Notes under the pieces: model-generated
Seen by the model: only the letters and a program-made list of their open reading frames with translations
The model's database searches: none
Told to the model about the DNA's origin: nothing
Part shown: positions 1-64,000 of the stretch, piece by piece
How the letters are laid out: each line of letters opens with the position of its first letter
Numbering within the stretch: the stretch's first letter is position 1
IMG/VR virus record: IMGVR_UViG_3300013132_006127
Source: a virus
Direction: 5' to 3' (one strand)
Length of the DNA stretch: 64,000 nucleotides
Made by a program: the position numbers and the translations under genes

Positions 1-1224
1 TTAATATATTTTGTACAAGTATTAAATCCAGATAATATTAGCGACTCAACAGGGTACGGATCTGTTCCATACGAATACCAAATAGCCCAGTATGCTGTAA
101 CTAATTGTGAATATGCTTCATTCTTAAATGCTATAGCATCAACAGATACTTACGGTGTTTATGATATTCTCTTAAGAAATAATATTAGAGGAGGTATTAT
201 AAGAAATGGAGATAGTGGAAACTATACATATAGTATAAAAAACAACATGGAAAATAAACCAGTAGTATTTATTACTTGGTTTAATGCTGCCAGATATTGC
301 AATTGGCTTCATAATGGCAAGCCTTTGGGATCACAAAATGCTAATACAACAGAAGACGGAGCTTATGCTCTTAATGGAGCTGTGGATGGTGTAGCTGTAG
401 CTAAAAATTTGAATGCAAAATATCATATTCCTACCGAAAACGAATGGTATAAGGCAGCGTATTTTGATGGAAATAGTTATTGGGATTATGCAACCCAAAG
501 CAATTCAGAACCAGAATGTATTAATGCTAGTAATACCGGCGATGGACTATCGGATTCTACATACTACGACTGCGCCCTTTCTGTACCAACCCCTACTCCT
601 ACGCCTACTCCTAGCCCAACACCAATACCATGTGATAGAAAAATTATTAAGTTGTATTTACCTGGAACTCTTATAGAGCCGGGTGGTATTAGAGCGACAA
701 ATATAAAACTAAAACTTAAAGGAGATGATCCAAAATGCTGCGGTGAATCAAATGAGGTAAATGTACCAATTCCTCCAGTACCTCCTCCTAATCCAACTAG
801 TCCACCAGAGAAGTGTATTAGTGATGGACTGGACTTGTATGGATATACCGCTATAGTGTCTTATGATCCAGAAAAATGTTCGGCAGGCCATGTGTGTAAT
901 CGTGCTATATTTGATTTTTATCTAGATAATTATTATATAGGGCAGGCCAATCTTAATAATTTAAATACAGACGGAGGCTCGCAGGGTGGGTATAGAGAAA
1001 GCGTTTTTACAATTAATGAACATATAATTGTAGGTAATAGCACAACATTTGAAATAAGATGCGCTCTTAGTAATTGCCATAAAGGTATAGGTAGATTAAC
1101 TATTATAAATGGTGATAATGAAGTAGTCTTTGCTGCTTGTATGCCGAACGATGTGGTGTTATTAGGAGAGAATTATATTTGTCCAACACCAACACCTTCG
1201 AATACTCCAACCAATGGATCTTAA
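1..1224 (+). CDS. 5'-truncated putative virion protein: FGE/SUMF1-type (C-type lectin fold) domain, Pro/Thr linkers and a Cys-rich beta domain
   Basis: The frame is open from base 1 (LIYFVQVLNPDNISDSTGYGSVPYEYQIAQYAVTNCEYASFLN...), so the ATG at 247 is internal. FGE-family motifs: GYGSVxYEYxI, KPVxxITWFNAARYCNWLHNG, PTENEWYKAAY. PTPTPT linkers follow. Confidence 0.8.
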   Translation, partial: LIYFVQVLNPDNISDSTGYGSVPYEYQIAQYAVTNCEYASFLNAIASTDTYGVYDILLRNNIRGGIIRNGDSGNYTYSIKNNMENKPVVFITWFNAARYCNWLHNGKPLGSQNANTTEDGAYALNGAVDGVAVAKNLNAKYHIPTENEWYKAAYFDGNSYWDYATQSNSEPECINASNTGDGLSDSTYYDCALSVPTPTPTPTPSPTPIPCDRKIIKLYLPGTLIEPGGIRATNIKLKLKGDDPKCCGESNEVNVPIPPVPPPNPTSPPEKCISDGLDLYGYTAIVSYDPEKCSAGHVCNRAIFDFYLDNYYIGQANLNNLNTDGGSQGGYRESVFTINEHIIVGNSTTFEIRCALSNCHKGIGRLTIINGDNEVVFAACMPNDVVLLGENYICPTPTPSNTPTNGS

Positions 1225-1226
1225 TT

Positions 1227-2564
1227 ATGATTTTAATTCCGACTAATAATAAAAATTGTATAATATTACAACCAGAGCCTAAACCATCGCCAACAGCTAC
1301 TCCTACGATTACTCGTACTGGTACTAAAACGCCTACACCTACCCCTACTCTAACAGCTCAACCAACTTCTACTCCAACAAAAACCCCTACCTCTACTACT
1401 ACCAACACAAAAACTTCGTCTCAAACCCCAACTACCACAAACACTAGAACAGCAACACACACCCCGTCAAAAACAGCAACAAATACTCCGACTACCACTA
1501 CTAGTATAACACCGACACCAAGTATAACCTCAACCACTACCACAACGGCGACTATTAGTAATACTCCTACAAAAACAGGAAGACCCACGCCAACCCCAAC
1601 CACAACATCTACTTTATCACCAACCCCAACAACTACAAATACCACCACGGCCACACACACCCCCACCTCCTCTGTAACTCCATCAACTTCTCCAACTCCT
1701 ACACCAACAACTACATTCGTTAACTGTGCTGAACCAGTATGTATCAACGAAGAAGCTATTACCTATGGAACTATTGGCCCAGGGGATTGTTCTCAGCCTA
1801 TAGAATATGGAACAAAAATTATTAATATACCAGAAGGAATGACACTTCCTGTATATGTTACCATGACAGGATTCGCTGATGATGTGTTGATGATTAATGG
1901 TCAAGTTGTTGATGCTGGACAAACAACTGATTATTTTGGTGGTTGTGCTGTAGGAGCTGGTAATTATAGTTTCGTTCTCTATGATCTTTCTTTTACTATA
2001 GGATCAGGAGATACCATTACCGGTAATAGCGGATATTCGTACAATATTTGTTTTTCTCAATGCATACCAGAAACTTCTCCAACACCAACTGCTACCAACA
2101 CACTTACTCCAACACCAACACTAACTCCTACGACAACTACCACACTTACTACAACACAAACTCCAACGACCACAACAACATCATCAGAAACACCAACACC
2201 CACTAAGAGCGCTACCCCTACTACCACGGCTAGCCTCACTGCAACTCCAACTGTTACTCCAACAATGACACCCACATCTCCAGTTGCACCAGGACCTGTT
2301 ACTATTTTAGCGGCTAATTCTGGACCAGAAACAGGAGAGATATTAATAACTTGGGCCGAACCAGATAATGGAGGATCGCCAATACTTCAGTATTCTATAG
2401 CTTATCAAAGACCCGGATCGTTATCGGTTAGAGCTGTATCTGGTTCGCTAACCTCTTTTACTTTAAGTAATTTACTGGAAGGTTATGAGTATACATTAAA
2501 CATAAGCGCTACAAATGCCGTTGGTACTGGTCCTTACGGACCATCTATAATAGTTATATTATAA
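1227..2564 (+). CDS. Thr/Pro-rich mucin-like protein with a central Cys-containing beta domain and a C-terminal fibronectin type III domain
   Basis: An in-frame ATG at 1227, just after the upstream stop at 1224, is preferred to 1137. Two long T/P tracts. FN3 signature PGP...ITWAEPDNGGSPILQY...LSNL..G.EY...SATNAVGTGP. Confidence 0.8.
   Translation: MILIPTNNKNCIILQPEPKPSPTATPTITRTGTKTPTPTPTLTAQPTSTPTKTPTSTTTNTKTSSQTPTTTNTRTATHTPSKTATNTPTTTTSITPTPSITSTTTTTATISNTPTKTGRPTPTPTTTSTLSPTPTTTNTTTATHTPTSSVTPSTSPTPTPTTTFVNCAEPVCINEEAITYGTIGPGDCSQPIEYGTKIINIPEGMTLPVYVTMTGFADDVLMINGQVVDAGQTTDYFGGCAVGAGNYSFVLYDLSFTIGSGDTITGNSGYSYNICFSQCIPETSPTPTATNTLTPTPTLTPTTTTTLTTTQTPTTTTTSSETPTPTKSATPTTTASLTATPTVTPTMTPTSPVAPGPVTILAANSGPETGEILITWAEPDNGGSPILQYSIAYQRPGSLSVRAVSGSLTSFTLSNLLEGYEYTLNISATNAVGTGPYGPSIIVIL
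1272..2282 (+). repeat. Low-complexity Thr/Pro-coding tracts (about 1272-1715 and 2070-2282)
   Basis: Runs of ACN/CCN codons encoding TPTPTTT..., with synonymous variation rather than perfect DNA tandem repeats. Confidence 0.9.
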
Positions 2565-2585
2565 AATTAAATAAAGAAAGAAACC

Positions 2586-3359
2586 ATGATCAATTTACTC
2601 AACAATAGCAGTCAGCCGTATCTATTTACTCATATAAATAATGATATTTGTATGCTATATTGTTTTTGCGAGCATCCTATCACCAGAAGTTTTGGTTCCA
2701 GTTCGTATTCTTTTAGACCTTGGAAAATTAAATATATCAATTTATCAAGCTCGGAGCCTTCACAAATAAATACTCCTAATTATCATCCTAATTTTGGCAC
2801 TGTTGTTATAGAGTGTAACCCTCATCTGAGTGTGGATAGTAATGGAAGCGGTAAAATTTATTATACCGCCGGATTCACAACAAGCGAAACATCCCATATT
2901 AAATACTATATTTGTTCGATGAATATACAAAATTTTGATTTTGGCAATTTATTAGATTTTCAAGTGCTATATCCTGCTTTTACAGGTATTAGAATAAGTG
3001 AAAATGAATTCGTTTACGCTAATAAAAAAGACTATATGCCAAAAGATAAATTAGTAAAAATAAACATTATAAATAATGAAACATTGGTATATGATATTGT
3101 TTTTGATGAAATATTGCGATTAGTTACTATATATGGTAGCGACCAGTTAATAGTTACAGGTAGAAACGGCAGCTTATATCAGTCTTATTTATTAAACAAT
3201 AATTTTACTATAAATAGTACAATTACTAACAATAATAATGAAGATATTTATAAGTGCAGTTTATTGAGTACAAATAATCAAAATTTGTTAGCATACACTC
3301 TGATGCAAACAAACGGATCCGAAGACAGATCGATTGTGATTGAAAATAGATCAATATAA
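2586..3359 (+). CDS. Hypothetical protein (beta-rich, Asn-rich)
   Basis: 257-aa ORF packed within the + strand module; no recognised motif. Confidence 0.7.
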   Translation: MINLLNNSSQPYLFTHINNDICMLYCFCEHPITRSFGSSSYSFRPWKIKYINLSSSEPSQINTPNYHPNFGTVVIECNPHLSVDSNGSGKIYYTAGFTTSETSHIKYYICSMNIQNFDFGNLLDFQVLYPAFTGIRISENEFVYANKKDYMPKDKLVKINIINNETLVYDIVFDEILRLVTIYGSDQLIVTGRNGSLYQSYLLNNNFTINSTITNNNNEDIYKCSLLSTNNQNLLAYTLMQTNGSEDRSIVIENRSI

Positions 3360-3429: not shown

Positions 3430-6400
3430 ATGCAAGAAATAGTTGTAGATAATTGTCAATGTCCAGCCGAAGTTACTCTAGGAATAGAAATTATTAATTT
3501 AACTCCCGGAGTTAAATATACATATACATTAAAAGCACTAAATAATCAATTAATTTCTTTTAGGCCAGAATCTGATGAATTTGTAGCAGAATCTAGTGTT
3601 TATAGATTTAATACCATAGCTTTTATACAAGAAGCCCCTGTTAGTGGTCTGTCTTACATTATAGCTGTAGAAGTATTTGATCCTTTTTATAACAAAGTTA
3701 GACAGGACACACTCTGCTTAAAAGTCTGTTCTTCTGTGCCTTTGTGTTCTCCTACTCCAACAGTTACTCCGAGTACTACCCCGTCTTATGATAGTAGTAT
3801 ACTTCTTTCGAATTATGGTGTTGTTGGAGATTTAGATAACAGTGCTGATTCAGATACCGGTAAAGGTCAAGTTAATTATTTTTATGCGCTTAGTAAAAGT
3901 CCTATTACTGTTAATCAATGGATAGAATTTCTAAATTCTGTAGCTTTTTATGATGATCCTCATGGGTTATGGAAAGAAGAGTGGGCGACGAATGATGTAG
4001 TTATTGTGCAAAAGTTTAATGGTGCTGAGTACTGTTACTCTCTTGCTTCTTGCTCCGATCCCAATAGTGCAGATGGCGGATGTTTACCCGAGGACGATCT
4101 ATTGGCTGGTAATTATGCTGTTACAGGACTAACATGGCAAGATACTGTTAGATATTGTAACTGGTTACATAATGGTAAACCAAAAGATTATCCTGGAGTT
4201 GGAGTCACAGAAACAGGTGCATATAACATATATTTAAAAACTAATGTTATAGAAAAAACTGAAAATGCAAAGTTTTGGCTTCCCACCGAAAACGAACTAT
4301 ACAAAGCAGCATATTATGAAAATTCCACAAAACAATATTACCAGTATGCAACCATATCTGACAATCCTCCCGGTCTTTCGTGTCTAGATTCTTCTAGGGT
4401 TTTGGATTTATTGTTAACAGAATTAGAATATAACGAATTAAAAGATCAATACAATTTTAGTACTCCTGTAAACGTTAATGCTGATTTGATGTATAAGCTT
4501 AGAGACTACGTTGAGAGAAGATTGGGTAGAACCTACGACGATTTTGATGAGGTATTTTCTGACGGTAAATACATCTTTAGACTTAGAAATGATTATTTCA
4601 TACTATTTACATCTGGAGATAATCCAACCCTATTACAAATAGATGGTAATAAGTCTATAACCAATGATGCTACATTACAAAATGTATATTGGGGTAATAT
4701 CAAAAATAGTCTAAAATCATACGTAGCTTGTGACACTAGGCCAAAAGCATATTCTCCCTATGGGTTATATCATTTAGCTGGCAATATACAAGAACTTACA
4801 GATACAAATACGGATAATAGTAAAACAGCTAAGGTTTTGTTTGGGTCTTCTTTTCAAACTCCGGTTAGCGAGTATAAAAAACTATCTAAACTATATAGTG
4901 ATAGTATACCATATACTTCTGGAGCTACAGATACCGGATTCCGTATTGGGGTTAATATCTATTCTCTGGTTAGATATCCATTGAGAGTATATTGTGTTGG
5001 AGGAGCAGCGTCATTAGAAAATGAAAACGGACAATCTAAAACACTATTCCCGGGTAAAGATAATCTAGGAGGTGTTCCATTTTTAGTTGGAGAGCTTAGT
5101 TATCCTAATTTATCGATTAATTATAGCTATGAGGATGATATAGAAACATTTAAAGATAATAATCCTGGTTATAATAATCTAAAGTATGCTAGTTTAGAAT
5201 TAGTAATGCTTGATAGTAACAATCAAGTTGTAGCTTATGTTACTACCAATAATAATGGTTTTGCGAGCCCTTGTGTAGTTGCTTGTGGATATTCTATAGG
5301 TTTATCATTTGGTTACTTACCGAGATTAAGAGGAAAAATTATTCCATCAACATGGATTATTGGTAATTCTGTATCTTGGTCATCTAGTATTTTTAGGAAT
5401 ATTCAACCATACTCTGTTGTAGAGCAGCAGTCTTTGGTTGCTCCTACTCCGACACCAACACCATCTATAACTAGTACTACTACTCAAACCCCAACTACAA
5501 CGGTCACTCTAACAAAAACTCCTACATCTACTCCAACAAGAACACCTAGGTCTACCAATACTCCCACAACAACACTGACTTTATCTGCAACTCCCACCAA
5601 AACAAAAACACCCACAAAGACATCAACACCAACAACAACTAAGACAGTAACGCCAACACAAACACCTACAACTACCACAACATTAACCAAGACGCCTACT
5701 CCCACAACCACAGAAACCGTTACAAGAACGCCAACCACAACCACAACCCTAACCTCTACACAAACACAAACTCCGACCAACACTCAAACACCAACAGTAA
5801 CACCAACGCACACCCCAACACAAACATCTACAAATACTCCGACACCTAGCGTAACGCCAACAATGGCTGGAATAAAATCAAATGTTTATGTTTGGGGATA
5901 TAACGGAGATAACCAGTTAAGTTTTGTAGATAATCTAAAATTCGTATTACCTATGGATCTAGAAAAAGATACCTCTGGTAAGTTTTTGAATTATGATAAT
6001 GTAATTAGATATACAAAAAATGGAAATGGACAATCTATTTATTTTGATTATGTTTCTACTGGTACAAATTTTAGTGCTGGCATAGACTCATTAGGTAAAA
6101 TTCATTCTGTTGGTAATAACGCTTGGGGCCAATTAGGTCTAGGTAACTATATTGGCAAGAAAAACTTTACTCCTGTGGTTATGCCCTCTGGATACGAATC
6201 AACAATCTTTAAGGAAATTAGTCTAGGTTCGTCTCACACACTAGCTTTAGACACATCAGGAAAGGTATGGTCTTGGGGTAGAAATTCTGATGGACAATTA
6301 GGACAGCACTACTTACTGAGACCTATATCCAGTATAACTCAAATCAGTCAAGATCTACAAACTTACGAATTAAAAGTATATGGTAATTGTATTAATGAAT

Positions 6401-8514
6401 ATATAGTACAAGATAATCTAGAAATAGAATATTATAATGGTATAGCAAATATTAAAGTTTATGCAAAACTATATGGTGAGCCGTCCTTAGAAGATGAAGA
6501 TGAACCGAATGTTAAGACTGTATTGAATGTGAGACTATTAGAAACAGATAATCCTGATATCTTAGATATAGATACTTTTGATCTGACTCAAGATATAAAT
6601 ACTACAGTGGTATCAACTGTTGTATCAGTTACTAGATTAAATACTGATCCGGGATTATTAGCTTCAGCATTCCCAAGACTTATAAATGTATATAAGGAGT
6701 ATCGCTATTGCCTATACAATAAACAGCTTTTCAACACTACACCAACACCTACTACAACCCAAACCTATACTGCTACAACAACAAATACCCTGTCGTCTAC
6801 TCCAACACCAACAACTACTACTACTTTAACCAGTACTCCGACAACATCTTTAACAGAATCTCCAACACCAACAACCACAAGTACTGGAACTCTACCCCCA
6901 GATACCACAAAAACACCGACACCAACTAATACTCCAACTAGAACTCAAACAGGAACTAGAACTCCTACTCCTAGCGTAACTAGAACCAATGATCCTACTG
7001 GCACACCAACACAAACTGTAACTTCAACACCAACACTATCTGGAACAAATACTCCTACTCCTAGTGTTACTCCTACTAAGGAAGCTTTTAATGTTTTATG
7101 GTTAGCTGGAGATATAACAGATGTTATTAATAATGACAACAAACATTTATGTGAAGTTAATGCTTTAGGCGCTCATAGTTATCCTTATCTATACAGAAGA
7201 TTAAAAGTTTTAAGTATAGTTTACGATGCCAATAAAGATGCGACAAAGATTACCATAGATCATGAAAATATTAAGAGTTCTAGCGATCCTATGGTTAATG
7301 ATATCAAGTTTGTTAGCGTTATACCTTTTGTTAATAGTTATGATGATAGTGACTATTCATATCGTTATCAATCGTTTAAACATGTATATGCTAGTGAAGC
7401 TCACTCGTATGCTTTAGATACAGACGATAGACTTTACGCTTGTGGTAGTGGTAAATTTGGTCAGTTAGGTCTAGGTAAAGTACAAGATGTAGACGCTTCC
7501 GGCAACCCAATACTGCCACCAATCATCACTCTTGCACCACGTTTCTTAATGATGAACATGCCCTATGTTGATAAAATTGATTGTAGAGCATTTGCATGGA
7601 AAAAGATATCTCTAGGCAGATTCCATGCAGCAGGCTTAGACAATTTTGGTAGAATATGGTGCTGGGGCCTTAATCAAGAGCAACAAGCCGGTCTAGCGAA
7701 TAATGCCGCAAACACTTTATCTGGTAAAATTTTAACACTAAATGTCACAGCTGACCCATATCCTGTTATTACAGATTTCTTAAAAGCAGATCTAAATATT
7801 AGAACAGGAAGATTTTCTTATGCCCCATTGCCTGTAATGTTATATCGTATATCTGACAATACTTCTAGCTCTTTATTGTTCGAACAAGATTTATGGATTG
7901 ACGTATCTTGTGGAGCGTATCATACATTGGCTATTAAGAAAGAATTCCAAGATAATAGCAATTATGGTTCTTTATGGGGTTGGGGTAACAATCAGTACGC
8001 CCAAGTAGCACCAATCTCTGGAGGAACAAGGGTTATTACTGGTCCAACAGATGCTATTGTTCAAGAGATACTTCTAGTAAGACAAGACAACACCAGAAAC
8101 TATTGGTCTAGAGTATTCGGAGGAAGAGTGAATTCCTTTGCTATACAATCATTAGATAATAGATTATATTCTTGGGGAAGTTTAGAATACGGACAAACAG
8201 GTAATGCTAGAAAGAGCGCCGGTGGTCAGCCTACTCTTAGTATACCAACGGCTATCATTAATGATAACTGGGGAGATACCAGCTCAATATACTATAGTTC
8301 TGATGTGTCGGATGTGTCGTTATTTGGTATGAGTGCCATATCTAATCATTCGTTATTCATCCCCATCCCGAGATCTGTTCAACCAGAACCAACATCTACC
8401 ACAACATCAACACCAGGATTCACTCAATCTATAACTCCTTCTCAAACCGTAACTTCCACACCGTCCACAACACCAACGCTAACATCAACACCAACGCCAA
8501 CTGAGTCTGAATGA
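3430..8514 (+). CDS. Large multidomain putative tail-fibre/adhesin: FGE-type domain, Thr/Pro linkers and a 7-repeat RCC1 beta-propeller
   Basis: FGE motifs RYCNWLHNG, LPTENELYKAAYY, SPYGLYHLAGNIQE and DTGFRI. Seven RCC1 repeats, e.g. GKVWSWGRNSDGQLG, ISLGSSHTLALD, VSCGAYHTLAI. T/P tracts at about 5440-5865, 6735-7080 and 8380-8510. Confidence 0.8.
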   Translation: MQEIVVDNCQCPAEVTLGIEIINLTPGVKYTYTLKALNNQLISFRPESDEFVAESSVYRFNTIAFIQEAPVSGLSYIIAVEVFDPFYNKVRQDTLCLKVCSSVPLCSPTPTVTPSTTPSYDSSILLSNYGVVGDLDNSADSDTGKGQVNYFYALSKSPITVNQWIEFLNSVAFYDDPHGLWKEEWATNDVVIVQKFNGAEYCYSLASCSDPNSADGGCLPEDDLLAGNYAVTGLTWQDTVRYCNWLHNGKPKDYPGVGVTETGAYNIYLKTNVIEKTENAKFWLPTENELYKAAYYENSTKQYYQYATISDNPPGLSCLDSSRVLDLLLTELEYNELKDQYNFSTPVNVNADLMYKLRDYVERRLGRTYDDFDEVFSDGKYIFRLRNDYFILFTSGDNPTLLQIDGNKSITNDATLQNVYWGNIKNSLKSYVACDTRPKAYSPYGLYHLAGNIQELTDTNTDNSKTAKVLFGSSFQTPVSEYKKLSKLYSDSIPYTSGATDTGFRIGVNIYSLVRYPLRVYCVGGAASLENENGQSKTLFPGKDNLGGVPFLVGELSYPNLSINYSYEDDIETFKDNNPGYNNLKYASLELVMLDSNNQVVAYVTTNNNGFASPCVVACGYSIGLSFGYLPRLRGKIIPSTWIIGNSVSWSSSIFRNIQPYSVVEQQSLVAPTPTPTPSITSTTTQTPTTTVTLTKTPTSTPTRTPRSTNTPTTTLTLSATPTKTKTPTKTSTPTTTKTVTPTQTPTTTTTLTKTPTPTTTETVTRTPTTTTTLTSTQTQTPTNTQTPTVTPTHTPTQTSTNTPTPSVTPTMAGIKSNVYVWGYNGDNQLSFVDNLKFVLPMDLEKDTSGKFLNYDNVIRYTKNGNGQSIYFDYVSTGTNFSAGIDSLGKIHSVGNNAWGQLGLGNYIGKKNFTPVVMPSGYESTIFKEISLGSSHTLALDTSGKVWSWGRNSDGQLGQHYLLRPISSITQISQDLQTYELKVYGNCINEYIVQDNLEIEYYNGIANIKVYAKLYGEPSLEDEDEPNVKTVLNVRLLETDNPDILDIDTFDLTQDINTTVVSTVVSVTRLNTDPGLLASAFPRLINVYKEYRYCLYNKQLFNTTPTPTTTQTYTATTTNTLSSTPTPTTTTTLTSTPTTSLTESPTPTTTSTGTLPPDTTKTPTPTNTPTRTQTGTRTPTPSVTRTNDPTGTPTQTVTSTPTLSGTNTPTPSVTPTKEAFNVLWLAGDITDVINNDNKHLCEVNALGAHSYPYLYRRLKVLSIVYDANKDATKITIDHENIKSSSDPMVNDIKFVSVIPFVNSYDDSDYSYRYQSFKHVYASEAHSYALDTDDRLYACGSGKFGQLGLGKVQDVDASGNPILPPIITLAPRFLMMNMPYVDKIDCRAFAWKKISLGRFHAAGLDNFGRIWCWGLNQEQQAGLANNAANTLSGKILTLNVTADPYPVITDFLKADLNIRTGRFSYAPLPVMLYRISDNTSSSLLFEQDLWIDVSCGAYHTLAIKKEFQDNSNYGSLWGWGNNQYAQVAPISGGTRVITGPTDAIVQEILLVRQDNTRNYWSRVFGGRVNSFAIQSLDNRLYSWGSLEYGQTGNARKSAGGQPTLSIPTAIINDNWGDTSSIYYSSDVSDVSLFGMSAISNHSLFIPIPRSVQPEPTSTTTSTPGFTQSITPSQTVTSTPSTTPTLTSTPTPTESE
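5440..7080 (+). repeat. Two Thr/Pro mucin-like tracts (about 5440-5865 and 6735-7080), both ending NTPTPSVTPT
   Basis: Read directly from the translation. Confidence 0.9.
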
Positions 8515-10441: not shown

Positions 10442-10463
10442 TTTAAAACTATAAGGAAAAATT

Positions 10464-14537: not shown

Positions 14538-14564
14538 GATCATGCAAAATAATGGAGAAATTAA

Positions 14565-26178: not shown

Positions 26179-26179
26179 T

Positions 26180-29291: not shown

Positions 29292-29292
29292 A

Positions 29293-35093: not shown

Positions 35094-35121
35094 ATAGTAT
35101 GCGACGGGCCGAGAATGTCAA
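35094..35121 (-). promoter_or_regulatory. Sigma70-type promoter for ssb
   Basis: TTGACA (35121-35116), 16-nt spacer, TACTAT (35099-35094). Confidence 0.7.
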
Positions 35122-39944: not shown

Positions 39945-39972
39945 TCCTAAAACTAATTCCTATTAACTATAA

Positions 39973-42029: not shown

Positions 42030-42031
42030 AT

Positions 42032-54775: not shown

Positions 54776-54821
54776 TATTGTTTTTTATAGAGTTGTGTTC
54801 GCACAACGTTTGACATATATA

Positions 54822-55541: not shown

Positions 55542-55565
55542 TTTTTTATGCTATTTTTAGTTTTA

Positions 55566-57707
55566 TCATCCATAATTATATTCCTCTATATTTGTATGTT
55601 TAAATTTTTTAAGAAAAAGTTTTTTATTTATTTCCTGATATTTTTTTGCTCCTTTGCTAGTATCGTTGCCGCTAGAAGATCCTTCGTCGTGTATAATTTC
55701 ACATCTAGGTTCGTACAATGTTTTTAATCCATTGATATGAGCCCTATATTGCCATTCGCTATCTTCGTAATACATTTTTTCTAAAGAAGAGTCTAAAACT
55801 CCAATTTTGTTTATAGCATCTCTTCTCATATACAATAAACACCCAGAACAATATCCAACGTATCTAGGAAGATTATACTCCCTTTTATTTGGATCGTGAC
55901 CCCTTCCTATATTTCTACCCGATCCATTGTTGTATAATTCTGATCCTGCTTCGGCCAACAATCCATTTGGGTATATACTTTTGCCTCCAACACATGCTAT
56001 ATAGTCTGAGCTATAAGCGCTACTATATAAATAATTAAGCCAATATTCTGACAATATTTCAACATCATCATTTAATAAAACAACATCTGAGTCTTTATAC
56101 AAAGGATCTTTTAAGATGTTATTGTTTGCTTCTATAAAGTAAAGATTTTTTTTATTTTTAATGTATCTGATTTTATTTTTGTATTTAGTCAGATAAGATT
56201 TGATGTAATTTTTAATTTTATCATTGGGGCTGTTGTCTGAAATGACTATAGAATAATTATCATATTTGGTTTTAGATATTATGCTTTCTAGACATTTAGC
56301 TAGTTTTTCTGTTTGGCTATAAGCAACAATGCTAATGATTACATGTTTAGATTTTAGAGTGTGAGCTAATACTTTTTTTGCTGCCTCTACTGATACGATT
56401 TTATCTAGGTGATTTTGTGCTGCTAGTCCTAATTGTTGTTTTTCTTTTTGAGACAAACTAAAGAAATATTCCATACTTTCTATAAATTCTTCATCAGTAT
56501 TTGCTATTAAAGAGTTTCCTTTATCTTTAAAATTTATGCCTTCGTTTCCAATATCTGATGTTAAAATAGGTACTCCGCACATTCCAGCATCACAAATTTT
56601 ACCTTTTATTCCTGCTCCCCAGTTTAATGGAGATAATAATAAACAACACTTTGAATATAAATCCTTTAAAGAGTCAACGTGCCCTAATAATTCGATATTT
56701 TTATATTGTGATGCTGATTCGATGTCCTTATCTGTGCCAGGACCAGCAAGATATAATTTGGGTTTGCGTCTTAATTTTTTATAAGCATTTGTTTTTTGAA
56801 ATTTCTTGTACAACTCTACGCATCTCAAAACAGCATCAACATTTGGTCCATGATTATAATTGCCAATAAAAAATATATCATTACCTAAAGTAACTTTTTT
56901 CTTGTGATGTATATTGCTTAATATTTTAATATTATTATGATAACCTATTTCTTTTTGAATTTCTCTTTTATCATTTTCCGTTACCGCAAATACAACATCA
57001 GCCTCGCTATATATTTTTTTTTCTAATTCTTTTTTATAATTCAATATCTCTTCAGAAGTTTTTATCCTTTGATCCTTCGCGCCCCTACTTTCTCTTAGCC
57101 AATGAACATCAACACTATCAACTATAATTTTACATTTTGGATAATATTCTTTAACAATATCAACATACTGAACGGCCATATCATACCACGAGAAAATAGC
57201 ATAATCGAAAATTAATTTTTGTTTTTTGAGTTCTGCTAAAGTGGCTATGTGATAATTTTTTTTATCTGGCAAAAAACATGGAATGTTTATGCTTCTAACA
57301 ATATCCAGGTATTTAGAATCGCTTGTTCCGTTACATAAAAAATATACATTATATTCTAGATCATTTTTTAGTATTTTAAGAATTTCTAACAATCTATTGC
57401 CGCCACTGCTCTTATCATAATCCGGAGCATGAGGAGAGAAATATAATAAGTTTTTAGAATCGCTCCAAAATTCTGGTTTGTGTTCTTGTATTTTTAAATC
57501 TTGATTTATTTTGATTTTTTTATACGGCCTATTTTCTTTTATACCAAACAGCAAGTAATGTTCTTTGGCTTTTTGTTCATTGTCTATAGCGGCTTGTTGT
57601 AAATCTGGATGATATTCTATATAAAATTGATAGTCAAAATCCTTTGGTATTAAAAAAGAATAAGTTTCTACTAATTTAACGAGTTGTGGTGAGGTGGTCC
57701 ATTTCAT
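55566..57707 (-). CDS. Bifunctional GT4 + GT2 glycosyltransferase
   Basis: SSGGNR, GAGIKGKI..A...GVP (GT4); LLNDDVE, GCLLYMRR, YYEDSE, IIHDEG (GT2). Confidence 0.88.
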   Translation of the reverse strand: MKWTTSPQLVKLVETYSFLIPKDFDYQFYIEYHPDLQQAAIDNEQKAKEHYLLFGIKENRPYKKIKINQDLKIQEHKPEFWSDSKNLLYFSPHAPDYDKSSGGNRLLEILKILKNDLEYNVYFLCNGTSDSKYLDIVRSINIPCFLPDKKNYHIATLAELKKQKLIFDYAIFSWYDMAVQYVDIVKEYYPKCKIIVDSVDVHWLRESRGAKDQRIKTSEEILNYKKELEKKIYSEADVVFAVTENDKREIQKEIGYHNNIKILSNIHHKKKVTLGNDIFFIGNYNHGPNVDAVLRCVELYKKFQKTNAYKKLRRKPKLYLAGPGTDKDIESASQYKNIELLGHVDSLKDLYSKCCLLLSPLNWGAGIKGKICDAGMCGVPILTSDIGNEGINFKDKGNSLIANTDEEFIESMEYFFSLSQKEKQQLGLAAQNHLDKIVSVEAAKKVLAHTLKSKHVIISIVAYSQTEKLAKCLESIISKTKYDNYSIVISDNSPNDKIKNYIKSYLTKYKNKIRYIKNKKNLYFIEANNNILKDPLYKDSDVVLLNDDVEILSEYWLNYLYSSAYSSDYIACVGGKSIYPNGLLAEAGSELYNNGSGRNIGRGHDPNKREYNLPRYVGYCSGCLLYMRRDAINKIGVLDSSLEKMYYEDSEWQYRAHINGLKTLYEPRCEIIHDEGSSSGNDTSKGAKKYQEINKKLFLKKFKHTNIEEYNYG

Positions 57708-58333
57708 AAATATGTTCTCTTATTATAACCAATATAGTTTTCTGTTTGCCAGTTTAGTTTATGATTTATTGTGTTTAGTTCCAATAAATCTAAATTATAT
57801 TGAGATGGTATAAAATTATTTGATAAAAATTTATATTTTGGAAGTTTAAAATTTGATGCTATTTCATTAAAAATAATATCAATATTAAGTAAACTTTCAT
57901 AGTTAAGCAATAAATAATTTTCACATATATTAGGCGTTATGTTTAATAGGTGTTGATTTTTTGTTTCTCTAAGATTAAAAATATTATCATATTCTTCTAA
58001 AAGAGTATCGTGTGGACCTGTCGAGACTATCTTATGGTTAAGAAATTTTAAAAATGTAGTGTCTTTATTAAAAGATATATGATATGGGTTTTTATACATG
58101 GCCGACATCCAATCGTATGGATTTCTTACTATTCCTATAAATAAAGTATTTTGACTATCTGGTATTGTTTTAGTATGATGTGTCCAAAAATGTTTCCATC
58201 CATATTTCCAAACAATAGGAATATCAAAAGAATTTTTAATCCATTTTTCTAAAAAATTAGTTCCAGAATGTCTTTCTGCAAAGATGGTGAAGTTTTTAAT
58301 AGGCTCTTTATTTGTTTGTATTATTATACTCAT
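57704..58333 (-). CDS. Sulfotransferase-like protein
   Basis: ERHSGTNFL (5'-PSB-like), VRNPYDW.S.Y (3'-PB-like), YESL. Confidence 0.65.
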   Translation of the reverse strand: MSIIIQTNKEPIKNFTIFAERHSGTNFLEKWIKNSFDIPIVWKYGWKHFWTHHTKTIPDSQNTLFIGIVRNPYDWMSAMYKNPYHISFNKDTTFLKFLNHKIVSTGPHDTLLEEYDNIFNLRETKNQHLLNITPNICENYLLLNYESLLNIDIIFNEIASNFKLPKYKFLSNNFIPSQYNLDLLELNTINHKLNWQTENYIGYNKRTYL

Positions 58334-59760
58334 AAAACATATTCCAACTTAGTAAAATTTATATTTGGATCAAAATCCCAAAAATAGTCTGGGTTCTTGT
58401 TTTTATTTAATTCTTTTAACTTTTCACCAGACAAACAATTTTGTTGGAGTAAGGAGTATAGTTCTTCATGAGTTAAAGGTTTTTCGAATAATGATGATTG
58501 CCCCCTACTATCACCGTGGATATGATTTGCACTCCACCCGTAGATCCCTACGTGAGCATGACGATTACTCTCTGGTGCTATGGTTGTCATATTGTTGATT
58601 TTTAGTACATTTTGTAGATCTATGTCTAAGCCCGATATTGTTTTATTCTTCAAAGAATCGTAATATGGCTCAACATATTTATAAAATTTATATCTATTTA
58701 TCATACAAGATCTAATGGAATTTTCACTTCTAACTATTTTATTAGGATTTCCTTTGGGTTTCTCCCATGCTCCAATATGAAAATATAATATATTATCGTC
58801 TTTGTTTAATGCATGATCATGAAGTAACTGCTCACAAAGTCTTAAATAATCTTTACTAATCAACACATCATCTTCTACGCTCAAAACATAATCATAATTT
58901 GTATTCTCAAATATATACTTTACACTATCATACCAAGAGTATTTACCACTATTTTTAGGCCAATTTATTCTATTATATTCATCGGTTATAACTTTGTCAT
59001 AATCTGATACTATTCCATAGTCAGGATGAGGATCAACAAAAACGTAAGTTTCAAAATTTTCACTATTAGTAGCATCTTTTTGATACTCTAGAGAAAGCTG
59101 CAACATTGCTGATCTGTCGTAATATGTTGGTCTAACTATGCAGATTTCGCTTAACGGAGGCGTATTATGTCCTATTGTCATTCTGTCTTCTGTATTATAG
59201 GTCCTATAGTTTGAAGTGTGATTATGTAAAGCTATTAGTTGCTTACAAGGATTTAGAGTTTCATAACCACTCTTTTTAGCCATATATGCCAATGCAGTAT
59301 CACACCCCAGTTTTCCCATATTAAAATTGCAATTTTTTATTTTATTAAAACCTTTCCATGCCCAAATATCTTGAGAAATACTAGGAATATGTATTAATTC
59401 ACCATCTTTCTCATATCTGCTGATGCACAGAAAAATATTGTTTCTGTTAAAAAAAATACAAATTTTATCAAATTTTTTTAAGATAATATCGCTATTTATA
59501 AGTATGTTAATGTCATCTTTGTTAGTATTTTCATTAGATTTTTGAAAAACATCGTCATATGTAATTCTTTGGTTTTGTAATATTAGAACTGTTTTTTCAT
59601 TAGTATATCTTTTTATAAAATCTAAACTCTCTTGAGTCTCACATAATAAATAAATTTTATCAATATAATTTAATTTTAAATTACTAACTATTGTATCTAG
59701 TATTTCTTTATTTCGTTCTTCATTATCAAATTTAAAATAAGGTATGTACAAATTAATCAT
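58330..59760 (-). CDS. Fusion of two GT-A-like glycosyltransferase domains
   Basis: N-domain NSDI, SQDIWAW, GKLGCD; C-domain PTYYDR, VEDDVL. Confidence 0.6.
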   Translation of the reverse strand: MINLYIPYFKFDNEERNKEILDTIVSNLKLNYIDKIYLLCETQESLDFIKRYTNEKTVLILQNQRITYDDVFQKSNENTNKDDINILINSDIILKKFDKICIFFNRNNIFLCISRYEKDGELIHIPSISQDIWAWKGFNKIKNCNFNMGKLGCDTALAYMAKKSGYETLNPCKQLIALHNHTSNYRTYNTEDRMTIGHNTPPLSEICIVRPTYYDRSAMLQLSLEYQKDATNSENFETYVFVDPHPDYGIVSDYDKVITDEYNRINWPKNSGKYSWYDSVKYIFENTNYDYVLSVEDDVLISKDYLRLCEQLLHDHALNKDDNILYFHIGAWEKPKGNPNKIVRSENSIRSCMINRYKFYKYVEPYYDSLKNKTISGLDIDLQNVLKINNMTTIAPESNRHAHVGIYGWSANHIHGDSRGQSSLFEKPLTHEELYSLLQQNCLSGEKLKELNKNKNPDYFWDFDPNINFTKLEYVL

Positions 59761-60647
59761 AATGATATAATGTCTTGTTTAAACTTTTCTATATTAAATA
59801 TATCTAATGTGCTGCGTTCTTTAAGATAGTTACTACAATCTGCTATGTATTTTTCATCTAAAAGATAATGATCTGGATCGTGCTTTATATCTTCATAAAA
59901 CAATGGATAGTCTTTTCCTATATACTCAACAACTGCGGGGAGTTTGTTTATTATAATAGGAGTGTGACTAACAATGTATTCTAATAAAGAATTACTCGCA
60001 GCAACATCACCATAATATACAAATCCTATGCCACAAACAAGATTAAAAATGTAATCGGTATTGTTCAAAAAAACATTTTTTATTTCTATATTGTGCGATT
60101 TATTTGACAAATATTTATTTATATAATTCTTGTCCCATTCTTTGTCTGCATATATCTTTTTTTTAATTTTAGTATTTAAATCTGCAAATTTTTCTATATT
60201 CCTACCATGAAATCCGGCTTGGTTCAGAACTGGATCTGCAAAATATTTTTGTATATTAAAACTGGTTTCACATGTTTTTGGATGATAGGTATGAGACACC
60301 GGAATATCAACTAAATTTTGTAAAATATCTGCTGTATATTTAGATAGAGTTAATAGTTTGATGCATTTGTCTTTATTATTTATAAACCAGGAGTGTTGCA
60401 CAAAATTATGTAGAGTTTGGTGATGTGTCCTGTCTGGGTCGCTGGCTACAGCATGAACTATACCTACCCATCTTGAATCAATGTTTGGCTTGTTATTCTC
60501 CCAAAAGCAACTATCTGCAAAAGAGTCTAAAACAATATCTGAGTTAGTATCGACTATATCATTTTTTATGGAGTTCACAATAAATTCCCATCCGTTGTAA
60601 TGGGCGCCGTACAAAGAGTAGGGAATTATAATTTTATTGAATTTCAT
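59757..60647 (-). CDS. GT-B-like glycan-modifying protein
   Basis: HYNGW, WVGIVH, ASNSLLEYI...TPIIINKLPAVVEYIGKDYPLFY. Confidence 0.5.
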   Translation of the reverse strand: MKFNKIIIPYSLYGAHYNGWEFIVNSIKNDIVDTNSDIVLDSFADSCFWENNKPNIDSRWVGIVHAVASDPDRTHHQTLHNFVQHSWFINNKDKCIKLLTLSKYTADILQNLVDIPVSHTYHPKTCETSFNIQKYFADPVLNQAGFHGRNIEKFADLNTKIKKKIYADKEWDKNYINKYLSNKSHNIEIKNVFLNNTDYIFNLVCGIGFVYYGDVAASNSLLEYIVSHTPIIINKLPAVVEYIGKDYPLFYEDIKHDPDHYLLDEKYIADCSNYLKERSTLDIFNIEKFKQDIISL

Positions 60648-60654
60648 ATATTTT

Positions 60655-61386
60655 CTAATTAATATAAGAGTAAGATTCTGCCCATTTGCGCCATTTTAGC
60701 AATTCAGGATACAAATCTTTTTTTTGAAAATATTCATGCATTTCTTTCTCTGCTAGCTGATTATAGTTGCTAAGGTGAGAATTGTCTTTTATGGTGCCGT
60801 GTCCAACATGAATAACAGGCAACCAATCTGCCACAGATATTTTCCATCCATTATTTTCACATATAATTCCAGACATTATATCTTGTACCCAACCATATGA
60901 TGAACGAAATGCTTTAACGGTTTCTATAAATTGTCTTCTAAGTAAGACGCATGTATAGTCAACCCATTTAACATATCTTAGCTCGGTACTATTCCAACAG
61001 TGCATTTGTGGCCAATAAGGTTGTTTCAATTCAGGTTGTATAATACACGAAGATAGCATATGCAAATCCGCATTAAATAGCTGTTTTCTCATTTCTTTTA
61101 TAAAGTTTTTACCTTGTATAATTAAATCAGAATTCAATACTATTAAAGAATCATACCGATGGTCTTTAATAAACAAATTAAAAATATAGTCCAGCCCTCC
61201 TCCGTAATAGAGATTGGTATCTAAACGATATGTGTTGTATTTGCTTTTTTTATCAAGATCGGAGCCGTTGTCAAGAACAATCAAATCATAATCCTCGCCT
61301 TCATACGGTTTCATTAATTCATACAATGTATCAGTGTATTTGGTACTATTATAGTGCAATATCACGGCCAGTGTTTTATGATTCAT
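60655..61386 (-). CDS. Glycosyltransferase family 2
   Basis: VILHYNS, VLDNGSD, VLNSDL. Confidence 0.8.
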   Translation of the reverse strand: MNHKTLAVILHYNSTKYTDTLYELMKPYEGEDYDLIVLDNGSDLDKKSKYNTYRLDTNLYYGGGLDYIFNLFIKDHRYDSLIVLNSDLIIQGKNFIKEMRKQLFNADLHMLSSCIIQPELKQPYWPQMHCWNSTELRYVKWVDYTCVLLRRQFIETVKAFRSSYGWVQDIMSGIICENNGWKISVADWLPVIHVGHGTIKDNSHLSNYNQLAEKEMHEYFQKKDLYPELLKWRKWAESYSYIN

Positions 61387-61399
61387 GTTTTATTAGTAT

Positions 61400-62440
61400 T
61401 TATTTATACTTTTGGGTTGTTCGTTTGATTATTTGTAAATAAGCATATCCATTTTTAACATCCGGTTCGATATGACATCCTTCGGCCCACTCATTCCAAG
61501 CATTTATGCAAAATATCCCGTGATCATGATTTTTATTTGTGTATTCTATAGCATTTTTTAAAGATAATTCAAAAGTCTCTAGACATGAATTTGAAAATAT
61601 GGTATGACATTTTTTATTTTCTGATTTTCTAGCCGTGTTGTCCCACGCAGGAAATGTTGTTTTTATGACAGGATATTCATATTTATTTTCTATTGATTTT
61701 AACATTGTTTTTTTATAGTCACATTGATTATGGTCTATTCTAACTACATTCTGAAAATTTGGTAAAAATTCCATATTCATATCAAAGTTTATATTTTTTG
61801 CATTTGTATAATCGCCAAAGGAATTAATTTTAATTAAATATAAGTCTTTAAAACCATAAGACCTAGATATTTTTCTCCACATAATAGATGTTTTATGAAT
61901 ATCTGGGAACAACCCAGTCCTGTAGACGGCAAATACGGGTTTGTTGTTTATTTTAATATACCTATCGTCTGAAAAAACATTTTCACACAAAAATTTCATG
62001 TGATTAACGTCATCTTCTATATTATGAACTTGTTCTTGGATGTATCCATTCTTGTTTGGATCAACTAATCCATCCCAATTTGTTGTCCAGGGTTCGTTGG
62101 CCCAAATATAAAAAAAGGGAAAGTTTGGTTTTTTAAACTTCAACATATTATCTAATGGGGTTTGAAGAAGTCTCTCGCCATTAAACCAATAATGATAAAA
62201 GGCAAAACCATATATTCCATATGATCGTGCCATTTCCGCTTGTCTTACCAAAACATCTGGATCACTTAAATCATAGTATCCAACAGACTCGTGAGGGACA
62301 TGAGGCTGATAATGACCCTCGAAAGAGGGCTTCGCCTTTTTGACATTGTGCCAATCGGTAAATCCTGCTCCCCAAAATCTTTCATTAATCGGAATAACAT
62401 GATACTGAGGAAAATATATAGCTATTGGCTTAATGTTCAT
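61400..62440 (-). CDS. WbsX-like glycosyltransferase / GH99-like domain protein
   Basis: IAIYFPQYH..P.N..FWG.GFTDW, GYYDL, YHYWF, WANEPW, WDNTAR, NAWNEWAEG..IEPD. Confidence 0.88.
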   Translation of the reverse strand: MNIKPIAIYFPQYHVIPINERFWGAGFTDWHNVKKAKPSFEGHYQPHVPHESVGYYDLSDPDVLVRQAEMARSYGIYGFAFYHYWFNGERLLQTPLDNMLKFKKPNFPFFYIWANEPWTTNWDGLVDPNKNGYIQEQVHNIEDDVNHMKFLCENVFSDDRYIKINNKPVFAVYRTGLFPDIHKTSIMWRKISRSYGFKDLYLIKINSFGDYTNAKNINFDMNMEFLPNFQNVVRIDHNQCDYKKTMLKSIENKYEYPVIKTTFPAWDNTARKSENKKCHTIFSNSCLETFELSLKNAIEYTNKNHDHGIFCINAWNEWAEGCHIEPDVKNGYAYLQIIKRTTQKYK

Positions 62441-62442
62441 AA

Positions 62443-63099
62443 TTATTCGTACTTATTATTTTCTAGTCTAAAATTAATAAAAGGATTAATACTGTGGACA
62501 TTGATACCAAGAGATCTTATTTTTTCACATATTTTTATGGTACTAGAATCTAGTGTTTTTACCCATTTTTTATATTCGTCCCAATTATCCTGCCAGATCT
62601 CTTTGATATCAGTATAATAATCATCAAAATTCATTTTATTATTAAGTAATCCGTGATCCGCCCCCACCAATAATATGTTGCGAGCACCTAAATAATATGC
62701 AAAATGTATACCTGTTGTTACGGTCGAGTGACTAACACATAAATAGCTTTCTTTATCAAAAGCAGATAAGTCTATATCTTCTTTGTTTGGTAAATGATCG
62801 TACACACATAAGTTTTGAATGTTTTTATATTTAGATATATCAATTTCTTCATAATATGCTGCGTGTTTTTTAGATACTAAAATGATTCCCTGGTAATTAT
62901 CTAATGTTTGTTGTAATAAATTATGATCTTTTTTAACTATGTATTTTGTATTGTATTTTTTGTATACCTGGTTAATTCCAACTGTTATTTTGTCATAAAA
63001 AAATGACGGGTCTACATAGTCACAGCTTGGTCCTGATCCTATGACATAAATATCTTTTCCTGTATGTATGTTGTGTAAATCTTTTAAATTGATTGTCAT
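62443..63099 (-). CDS. Maf/DUF115 (MptE-like) glycosyltransferase
   Basis: YVIGSGPS, TVGIN, STVTTGIHFAYYLGARNILLVGAD. Confidence 0.75.
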   Translation of the reverse strand: MTINLKDLHNIHTGKDIYVIGSGPSCDYVDPSFFYDKITVGINQVYKKYNTKYIVKKDHNLLQQTLDNYQGIILVSKKHAAYYEEIDISKYKNIQNLCVYDHLPNKEDIDLSAFDKESYLCVSHSTVTTGIHFAYYLGARNILLVGADHGLLNNKMNFDDYYTDIKEIWQDNWDEYKKWVKTLDSSTIKICEKIRSLGINVHSINPFINFRLENNKYE

Positions 63100-63519
63100 T
63101 TATTCACCCGGCACACCTAGTACGCTCCTTAACAGAAAAATTGCTCTATCAAGAAAAATTCTTTCAGAACCATGATCTGCTTTATTATAATCCGAAAGAA
63201 AATTTTGAATAGTTGTTGTCATTAAAAGGTTTATCTTGTCTATACTATTTAAAGTTTTATCATCAATGAATAAATCATATACTGGTTTGTCGCACCTTAA
63301 TTCATGATACTTGCAATTCCACAAATTTAATTGATTTTTTGTTAAATTATAATAGTCAGCTCCAGAACCAACTCCCCTAGCTGTCCAATAAACAATATGG
63401 TGTCCGTCATCATATAGCTTATTAATTTTTTCTATATATTCCACAATTGGCTCACAATTTTGATAATCATAACCATTAGTTTTAGTTATAGTGTTATCTA
63501 TATCTACATATATTATCAT
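63100..63519 (-). CDS. HAD-family (capsule-biosynthesis-type) phosphatase
   Basis: YVDIDNTI, YWTARG, KP.YDLFIDDK. Confidence 0.85.
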   Translation of the reverse strand: MIIYVDIDNTITKTNGYDYQNCEPIVEYIEKINKLYDDGHHIVYWTARGVGSGADYYNLTKNQLNLWNCKYHELRCDKPVYDLFIDDKTLNSIDKINLLMTTTIQNFLSDYNKADHGSERIFLDRAIFLLRSVLGVPGE

Positions 63520-64000
63520 AATAATTTTTTAATTAACTCCAAATCTTCCATAGTGTCTATTTGAAAACTTCTATAAAATGGCATTTCTACCATTCCTATT
63601 TTGCCACTATATCTTAGTTTAGAATCTAATAAAGATTTTTTTGTTGTTATATAAAACGCCCCATTTTCTACATATTTTGCTGGCATGTCTTGTCTCATTG
63701 GTCTATCATTCATGTTCCAATTGTCTGGAGATTTGTCCATATTCCATCTTGGAATCCAATGTTCTTTATAAACACTGAAAATACTATCATAATCGGCCAT
63801 CATGCTCAAACCTTTATTAATATCTTCTGGCAATAACAATGGAGATGTCGGTTGTATAAAGACAAGTATATCGAAATCAATATTATTTGCAAAATGAATT
63901 AACGCCTCTTCGCTTTTGTTTTTATCACCAGATATTTCCTTTGGTCTGTCTATAACTTTTGCTCCATATTGTTTAGCAACAAAGGCTATGTTCTTACAGT
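63516..64000 (-). CDS. neuA: Acylneuraminate cytidylyltransferase (CMP-nonulosonate synthetase), 5'-truncated
   Basis: The frame is open to the window edge: AKQYGAKVIDRPKEISGD...FIQPTSPLL, RPMRQD, YVENGAFY, SFQIDT.EDL. Confidence 0.88.
   Translation of the reverse strand, partial: CKNIAFVAKQYGAKVIDRPKEISGDKNKSEEALIHFANNIDFDILVFIQPTSPLLLPEDINKGLSMMADYDSIFSVYKEHWIPRWNMDKSPDNWNMNDRPMRQDMPAKYVENGAFYITTKKSLLDSKLRYSGKIGMVEMPFYRSFQIDTMEDLELIKKLL

Follow-up and report, generated by a model that had tools for sequence, protein, structure and literature searches.

Does a large phage glycosylate the stalks of its own tail fibres and, if so, with which enzymes? The question is raised by virus record IMGVR_UViG_3300013132_006127, a 64-kb piece of the genome of an uncultured large lake phage (this whole stretch is called the window below), which encodes both tail proteins with long Thr/Pro tracts and a set of glycosyltransferase (GT) genes. 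A sequence-only reading of the window had proposed that the phage decorates these stalks itself, by Maf-type transfer of a CMP-activated nonulosonate and possibly by sulfation. The first half of this proposal gains support from our analysis, since Thr/Pro stalks co-occur with a gene of the polypeptide GlcNAc-transferase family GT60 (PF11397) in relatives of the window phage and also in unrelated jumbo phages—one of them with Schiff-positive virion proteins. The second half, the Maf/CMP-nonulosonate route with sulfation, does not hold as the explanation of the stalks. We give roughly even chances to a scheme in which the stalks are O-glycosylated in the host cytoplasm by soluble phage transferases, with a GT60-like initiator and a strain-specific nonulosonate cap.

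Thr/Pro stalks in the tail module and among relatives

The plus strand of the window begins with a tail module of ten proteins (1-25474), of which the following open reading frames (ORFs) bear on the stalks (lengths in amino acids, aa):

1-1224, plus strand: tail-module protein, 3' part (5' end outside the window), with an FGE-sulfatase/C-lectin-like domain (PF03781, E 5e-13) and Cys-rich domains
1227-2564, plus strand: stalk protein of 445 aa, running from a Thr/Pro tract (165 aa) through a small Cys-containing globular domain and a second Thr/Pro tract (90 aa) to a C-terminal FN3 domain (E 2e-11)
3430-8514, plus strand: stalk protein of 1694 aa, with C-lectin-like domain, Thr/Pro tract, RCC1 propeller, Thr/Pro tract, RCC1-like propeller and T/S/P tail
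8540-10441, plus strand: conserved tail protein of 633 aa, with 28 homologues and 67 IMG/VR loci

Five Thr/Pro/Ser tracts of 54-165 aa are present in the two stalk proteins—165 and 90 aa in the shorter, 162, 127 and 54 aa in the longer. Each consists of 68-70% Thr, Ser and Pro, and together they contain 257 Thr and 55 Ser, i.e., 312 Ser/Thr. If a mucin-like stalk is taken to be a tract dominated by Thr, Ser and Pro, longer than 50-100 aa and set between folded domains, the window tracts are of this kind. In the 1694-aa protein, the C-lectin-like domain (aa 147-306; FGE-sulfatase, E 1.3e-8) is followed by a tract at 659-820, an RCC1 propeller (E 5e-53), a tract at 1096-1222, a second RCC1-like propeller and the T/S/P tail (1641-1694); its globular parts are 41-43% identical to two genes of G001, the closest complete relative. 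Pfam recovered all of the domain types that had been described as joined by the tracts: lectin-fold domains of the FGE-sulfatase type (E 5e-13 and 1.3e-8), FN3 (E 2e-11) and RCC1 (E 5e-53). The count of three plus-strand proteins with long tracts, in turn, comes down to two: ORFs 1227-2564 and 3430-8514 qualify, and ORF 1-1224 has TPTPTP linkers that are short only, such as the TPTPTPTPSPTP linker. The FGE-sulfatase domain of this last protein has a counterpart of 44% identity in a relative (L035). At the boundary between the first two ORFs (1137-1227), a new PTPTPS tract starts as ORF 1-1224 ends, and the next stalk gene begins 3 bases further on in another frame, whose open stretch reaches back to 1137; they may derive from a single gene, or may be joined by a frameshift. 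A diversity-generating retroelement aimed at the C-lectin-like domains was considered and rejected, as the window holds no template/variable repeat pair and its repeats are the Thr/Pro tracts themselves. The 633-aa protein is possibly baseplate-hub-like, with weak structural leads to gpD/Mu-P/Dit; a search of its profile against PDB sequences gave no match.

Relatives were collected with a profile built from homologues of the 633-aa protein, which yielded the 67 IMG/VR loci (single-protein scans of viral contigs gave none); 47 searchable records of related phages were available, 17 of them at least 90% complete. Thr/Pro-tract proteins lie directly upstream of the 633-aa gene at about 40 of the 67 loci, and the rest have a single Asn/Ser/Gly-rich protein of ~1450 aa in that place. 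A genome-wide scan for the TPTPTP coding pattern was positive for 31 of the 47 records, with 10 of the 17 complete genomes positive, the other seven at zero and controls near 0. The same tail module is preceded by an Ala/Gly/Lys-rich giant ORF in relatives. G001 is syntenic with the window, shares replication genes at 45-87% identity and has abundant Thr/Pro tracts.

A GT60-like transferase that accompanies the stalks

PF11397, the family of the GT60 polypeptide GlcNAc-transferases of Dictyostelium and trypanosomes, follows the division between relatives with and without tracts: each of the 10 complete Thr/Pro-positive genomes has it, and the 7 Thr/Pro-negative ones all lack it. Overall, 14 of the 47 records contained it, all of them pattern-positive, with E values of 1e-56 to 1e-65, and a control set of 14 cellular genomes, bacterial and archaeal, gave no match. 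The G001 gene reaches 249.6 bits (cut-off 21) and is located between HtrL_YibB-like and methyltransferase-like genes; the transferase island of this genome includes a Thr/Pro protein of 1094 aa. The phage GT60-like enzymes share 63-69% identity with one another and have no hydrophobic segment. A DSH motif is invariant in six phage GT60-like sequences, corresponding to the DxH metal-binding motif that we take to define the GT27/GT60 type. At least 468 contigs in IMG/VR contain GT60-like relatives, and identity to the G001 protein is 63-100% throughout the best 80 of these; the clade is thus abundant in environmental viromes. At 178641-180938 of G001, a few kb from its GT60 operon, we also observed genes for a subtilase (PF00082, E 2e-50) and for an actin homologue of the volactin type (PF25216, E 1e-61). 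Hydroxyproline was considered as the acceptor and set aside: a prolyl-hydroxylase family member occurs in only 2 of the 10 Thr/Pro-positive genomes, which makes Thr the likelier acceptor.

The association recurs outside the lineage. A tblastn search of the GT60-like enzyme against 50,697 phage records returned four only, at 47-49% identity—Xanthomonas phages XacN1 and Xoo-sp13 and Stenotrophomonas phages CM1 and RAS14—none of which has the 633-aa protein or the core GT4 of the window lineage (described below). The three of these tested, XacN1, Xoo-sp13 and RAS14, have 29, 26 and 19 TPTPTP matches, respectively, and PF11397 hits at E ~1e-75. Neither TPTPTP nor PF11397 was detected in the control jumbo phages Atu_ph07, SCTP-2, RaK2, phiKZ and G (2.05 Mb in total). 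In XacN1, Thr/Pro tracts of 32-132 aa occur in ORF232-237 and ORF384, and further TPTPTP stretches occur in ORF325, a protein of 3,313 aa whose gene adjoins baseplate genes and lies less than 10 kb from ORF334, the GT60-like gene (49% identical). Virions of XacN1 contain at least two Schiff-positive proteins; ORF328 or ORF334 was suggested to make the modification (PMC5852040), and the same paper draws no link between ORF334 and GT60 or Thr/Pro proteins. ORF232-237 (XacN1 124048-133104) are six paralogues with one central tract of ~64-105 aa at the same position, ORF236 having two further short ones; they may be a family of stalked virion or decoration proteins.

The converse test started from the acceptor side, with 27 viral contigs of at least 43 kb picked solely by a (TP)5 coding stretch. 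PF11397 was present in 8 of these 27, as against 4 of the 50,697 phage records, and none of the eight carries the lineage core GT4 on the contig. Literature searches returned no report of GT60 or of mucin-like glycosylated proteins in phages. As an observation of another kind, Synechococcus phage S-CBS4, a cyanosiphovirus, has GT4, galactosyltransferase and methyltransferase genes between its portal and head-protease genes (9916-12282), a position that suggests virion protein glycosylation.

Glycan island, nonulosonate module and core GT4 pair

Two stretches of the minus strand, 28000-32000 and 54800-60000, are low in GC (0.23-0.30 versus ~0.34 elsewhere) and rich in glycosyltransferases. Both are full of ORFs without family assignment; several of those in the 29293-30875 region are 25-47% identical in G001, and the genes at 57704-61386 have no homologues in that genome. 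The glycan genes of the window other than the core GT4 pair are:

25471-26310, minus strand: GT25-like protein of 279 aa, sub-threshold (E 0.007, 16.7 bits versus a PF01755 cut-off of 24)
54822-61386, minus strand: variable glycan island of low GC (0.23-0.33), with a 239-aa ORF, a 713-aa GT4+GT2 fusion (55566-57707) and four unassigned ORFs
61400-62440, minus strand: WbsX-family glycosyltransferase (PF14307, E 3.5e-107)
62443-63099, minus strand: MptE/Maf/CstII-fold protein of 218 aa (PF01973, 27.9 bits, below the cut-off of 34.6)
63100-63519, minus strand: small HAD-IIIA-type phosphatase, KdsC/KDN-9-P phosphatase-like (TIGR01689, E 3e-8; TIGR01662, E 0.008)
63516-64000, minus strand: CMP-ulosonate/nonulosonate synthetase, N-terminus beyond the window end (PF02348, CTP_transf_3, hit at 63516-63998, 33.1 bits versus a cut-off of 22.6)

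The GT4, GT2 and WbsX-like genes of the sequence-only reading were all recovered, as two GT4 genes, the GT4+GT2 fusion and the WbsX gene. Its GT25 gene stays below the Pfam cut-off, and its sulfotransferase-like gene finds no counterpart: no sulfotransferase match was obtained with Pfam for any window ORF at E <=0.01, nor for ten unassigned ORFs at E <=5. The fusion is 60% identical in G001, and the island beyond it is entirely different there. Since the window proteins have no transmembrane-like segments and the window contains no flippase, polymerase or priming transferase, its transferases look soluble. The 54822-55541 ORF had been suggested by a repeat (D6) as a paralogue of the Maf-like gene, and was rejected as such (BLASTP E 0.07).

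A NeuA-type synthetase close to a Maf/DUF115 gene had been at the centre of the first proposal. The synthetase stands, with its score above the PF02348 cut-off, and the Maf assignment does not: the 218-aa protein remains under the PF01973 gathering score and forms a single domain, whereas Maf flagellin transferases are multi-domain proteins of ~600 aa. Foldseek searches with its AF2 model (pLDDT 95) returned the archaeal MptE kinase 8sd5, Maf 5mu5 (E 3.4e-4, TM 0.44) and CstII 2x61. MptE, Maf and CstII/CstI are about equally alike to it (TM ~0.5), with 8sd5 and 2x61 equal to or better than 5mu5. Among its 706 homologues, many are free-standing proteins of ~220 aa, and others form C-terminal or internal domains in giant enzymes with RgpF, GT4, GT2 or CST-I sialyltransferase domains. 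Judged by its modelled fold, the protein is a member of the MptE/Maf/GT42-like superfamily and not demonstrably a Maf; because of its gene neighbours, it is plausibly a candidate CMP-ulosonate transferase, with nothing pointing to a protein acceptor. It resembles the Maf enzymes in the modelled Rossmann-like fold of their central domain and in a gene adjoining that of a CMP-nonulosonate synthetase; unlike them, it has no flanking domains and no flagellar context, and its homologues occur in polysaccharide-transferase fusions. To the GT42 enzymes CstI and CstII of Campylobacter it is similar in size, in fold (2x61, 1ro7 and 2p2v) and probably in using a CMP-activated donor, and CST-I domains occur in its fused homologues, but identity is only ~16% and CstII acts on lipooligosaccharide glycans. 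The synthetase may be of the Neu, Pse, Leg, KDN or Kdo subtype; its best NCBIfam model, PseF, is far below the cut-off. No neuB was found within the 64-kb window; in one relative, G029, a 274-aa NeuB (E 2.4e-64) lies two genes from a synthetase of 66% identity, with a polysaccharide pyruvyl transferase between them.

The distribution of these genes bears directly on the possibility that the Maf-like enzyme itself places CMP-activated nonulosonate onto stalk Ser/Thr—as Maf does on flagellin—and that this is the main modification. The adjacency of the synthetase, phosphatase and MptE/Maf-fold genes and the fold match to 5mu5 are consistent with it, as is the fact that all four synthetase carriers (the window phage, G029, G045 and G030) are Thr/Pro-positive. 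Among the 47 relatives, however, CTP_transf_3 occurs in 3, NeuB in 1 and a Maf-like gene in 1, versus Thr/Pro tracts in 31, and G001 has neither a CMP-sugar synthetase nor a NeuB or Maf-like gene. Most Thr/Pro-bearing relatives are without nonulosonate genes, and the supposed link between the tracts and neuA, neuB and maf is therefore refuted. The protein, moreover, has no substrate-binding flanks, scores below its Pfam cut-off, is equally like MptE and the glycan-acting CstII, and has homologues fused to polysaccharide transferases. We consider this route highly improbable; with co-occurrence failing, the Maf architecture missing and no sulfotransferase found, it is abandoned here as the stalk mechanism, together with sulfation. 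The nonulosonate module is real, but it is a rare accessory and not the core of the stalk system; it may cap glycans in this strain.

The remaining features of the window include the GT4 pair that is core to the lineage, and two further parts of the tail module:

31756-34598, minus strand: lineage-core GT4 pair (Pfam), a 564-aa GT4 (32904-34598) followed by a 383-aa GT4 (31756-32907)
2586-3359, plus strand: Asn-rich protein of 257 aa between both stalk proteins (no match in Pfam or PHROG)
10464-25474, plus strand: large conserved tail/baseplate proteins of 1357, 1049, 155, 2288 and 155 aa, with homologues in Thr/Pro-positive and Thr/Pro-negative relatives

These last five proteins are without Thr/Pro tracts and have no Pfam match. 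The minus-strand replication module comprises a split DnaE, exonuclease, single-stranded DNA-binding protein (SSB), primase, DnaB, a RecA-like protein, PhoH, class II ribonucleotide reductase, dCMP deaminase and dNMP kinase. The DnaE halves lie within 35118-42035 (N-half 40137-42035, C-half 35118-36668), with genes for an RCC1-repeat protein (863 aa) and an exonuclease of the RNase T type in between, and the same arrangement is seen in G001. Membership in the 'moraphage' lineage (PMC12619734) was rejected on this basis, as moraphages use a family B polymerase and the window phage has the split DnaE.

A Cys4 zinc ribbon is inserted into the 564-aa GT4, an enzyme with an EX7E motif whose gene adjoins those of SSB and DnaE in the same direction. 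It is present in 46 of the 47 relatives at 39-54% identity, irrespective of Thr/Pro status (the tail protein is at 20-34%), and a second GT4-like gene always follows it in the 30 loci examined. Fold searches describe a generic retaining GT-B enzyme, with GT 3oy2 of chlorovirus NY-2A as the best match, followed by MshA and BshA. Assignment to the GtfA/GtfB type of serine-rich adhesins was rejected, as only a marginal sequence match to 4pqg was found and the fold matches are those of a generic GT4. The target of this enzyme could be DNA, the capsid or something else. In another explanation, some or most of the transferases, especially the core pair, would glycosylate phage DNA (hypermodified bases) against restriction, and the Thr/Pro proteins would be unrelated. 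The core GT4 lies beside the replication genes, co-directional with them, and is among the most conserved proteins whether or not tracts are present; a dNMP kinase and a dCMP deaminase are encoded as well, and DNA-glycosylating GT-B enzymes of phages are described in Pyle et al. 2024, to the extent that PMC12619734 cites that work. Against this, the window showed neither a base-hydroxymethylase nor anything similar; the fold, best matched by a chlorovirus protein, is of the generic retaining GT4 kind; and the GT60 and nonulosonate genes, related to enzymes known to act on proteins or glycans, are not covered. We judge this explanation very unlikely.

A proposed scheme for stalk glycosylation, its rivals and its precedents

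The scheme that we put at roughly even chances can be laid out as follows. The Thr/Pro tracts would act as mucin-like stalks, setting apart the C-lectin-like, FN3 and RCC1 binding domains of tail-distal fibre proteins, whose genes would occupy a variable slot between the tape measure and the conserved hub-like protein. Soluble transferases of the phage would attach O-glycans to these stalks, which we infer from gene co-occurrence to be the acceptors, inside the host cytoplasm and no later than during tail assembly. The putative initiator is a soluble GT60-like polypeptide alpha-HexNAc transferase with the invariant DSH motif, encoded in the HtrL/methyltransferase operon and known from relatives rather than from the window; its acceptor would be Thr rather than hydroxyproline. 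Extension of the glycan would then fall to variable accessory transferases, represented in the window by WbsX, the GT4+GT2 fusion and the island genes without assignment. In the window strain only, a terminal acidic sugar might be added by the nonulosonate module, with its CMP-sugar synthetase, HAD phosphatase and CstII/Maf-fold transferase. The order of these steps, like the role of the nonulosonate, is our reconstruction from gene content.

Several points weigh against this scheme. For the window phage and its lineage, it is drawn from gene content, and the GT60 gene is known from relatives, not from the 64-kb window. In a tree of the core GT4, the Thr/Pro-positive genomes fall on one side of a single branch (SH-aLRT 86); Thr/Pro tracts and GT60 therefore represent one evolutionary event within the lineage. 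GT2 and GT4 genes are no more numerous in Thr/Pro-positive than in Thr/Pro-negative relatives, so that most transferases of the lineage must have other targets. GT60 is missing from 19 of the 27 (TP)5 contigs, including four complete small phages or proviruses, and Thr/Pro linkers therefore also exist without it. The Schiff-positive glycoproteins of XacN1 may be others than its Thr/Pro proteins, and, finally, the Maf-like domain has homologues that form fusions with polysaccharide-building enzymes.

Some of these points fit a different explanation, in which the Thr/Pro tracts are extended polyproline-II-like linkers, unglycosylated or modified by the host, and the glycan island with its nonulosonate module remodels the host envelope (lipopolysaccharide (LPS), capsule or S-layer), e.g., against superinfection or against the sticking of progeny to debris. 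Enzymes of polysaccharide type are present, namely WbsX, the GT4+GT2 fusion, the Maf-like homologues fused to RgpF, GT2, GT4 or CST-I and the pyruvyl transferase of G029; the island is low in GC and differs among close relatives like O-antigen loci. The equal number of transferases in Thr/Pro-negative relatives and the GT60-free tracts of the 19 contigs point the same way. However, neither a membrane protein nor a flippase, a polymerase or an enzyme for lipid-carrier priming is encoded in the window, and envelope remodelling leaves unexplained both the strong, recurrent co-occurrence of GT60 with Thr/Pro tracts and the Schiff-positive virion proteins of XacN1. We regard it as unlikely overall, though clearly less so than either the Maf route or DNA glycosylation.

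Stalk glycosylation by a GT60-like initiator has its closest precedents in eukaryotes. GT60 enzymes add alpha-GlcNAc onto Thr of Thr/Pro-rich mucin repeats; assays of the T. cruzi enzyme use KPPTTTTTTTTKPP, and galactose and sialic acid are later added to the glycans (PMC3769586). The likeness of the phage case to such systems (T. cruzi TcOGNT-2 and Dictyostelium Gnt2) lies in the Thr/Pro-rich acceptors, of which KPPTTTTTTTTKPP is an example, and in PF11397, which the relatives of the window phage match at ~250 bits; extended glycans capped by sialic acid are a further parallel in T. cruzi (PMC3769586). The differences are that these systems are eukaryotic and their mucin enzymes are Golgi membrane proteins, whereas the phage case would be set in the bacterial cytoplasm, with activity, donor sugar and acceptor all predicted and a gene taken from relatives. 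Gnt1, a cytoplasmic GT60 member acting on Skp1 hydroxyproline, is soluble, as the phage enzymes appear to be. Among phages, XacN1 is alike in its 49% identical GT60-like enzyme, its many Thr/Pro tracts of 32-132 aa (one of them in the giant protein by the baseplate genes) and its stained virion glycoproteins, and differs in belonging to an unrelated myovirus lineage with a family B polymerase and RaK2-like structural genes.

Other systems are alike in parts. The Pro/Thr linkers of bacterial cellulases and scaffoldins, which are O-glycosylated in their native hosts, resemble the stalks in composition and as extended spacers between globular modules; they belong to secreted proteins, unlike the stalks, and are modified outside the cytoplasm by host systems. 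Giant viruses glycosylate autonomously, with soluble transferases, sugar-nucleotide pathways and variable gene clusters, as in the chlorovirus capsid protein and the Mimivirus fibrils; the NY-2A transferase is the best fold match of the core GT4, but hosts are eukaryotic and acceptors are others. Mycobacteriophages decorate their own structural proteins by phage-encoded transferases, as reported by Freeman et al. 2023 in the form cited in PMC12619734. In that account, the modification affects short stretches at the C-termini of capsid and tail-tube subunits, transferase and structural genes are neighbours, and mucin-like stalks, GT60 and nonulosonate do not feature.

A more general claim, which we advance tentatively and with somewhat less confidence than the scheme for the window phage, is that a complete system of mucin-type O-glycosylation, eukaryote-like in kind, is encoded by large phages of at least two unrelated lineages, the freshwater giant-tape-measure group and the XacN1-like Xanthomonadaceae jumbo phages. 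It would consist of a soluble GT60 HexNAc transferase, co-evolving virion Thr/Pro stalks and strain-variable extension enzymes, here including a sialic-acid-like cap, and would yield a 'mucin-coated' tail apparatus. The conspicuous nonulosonate/Maf genes that first drew attention to the window are, in this corrected reading, a rare accessory. An experimental handle exists in XacN1, which is cultured and has Schiff-positive virion bands. Virion self-glycosylation is established for few phages only, the mycobacteriophages, where it concerns the short C-terminal stretches described above. If the claim is true, a widespread environmental phage group (at least 468 IMG/VR contigs with GT60-like genes) would use a different system, combining mucin-like stalks, a eukaryote-type initiator and exchangeable capping sugars. 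Tail fibres built in this way would be stiff, protease-resistant and antigenically variable, and the origin and spread of GT60/GT27-type protein glycosylation would have to be reconsidered.

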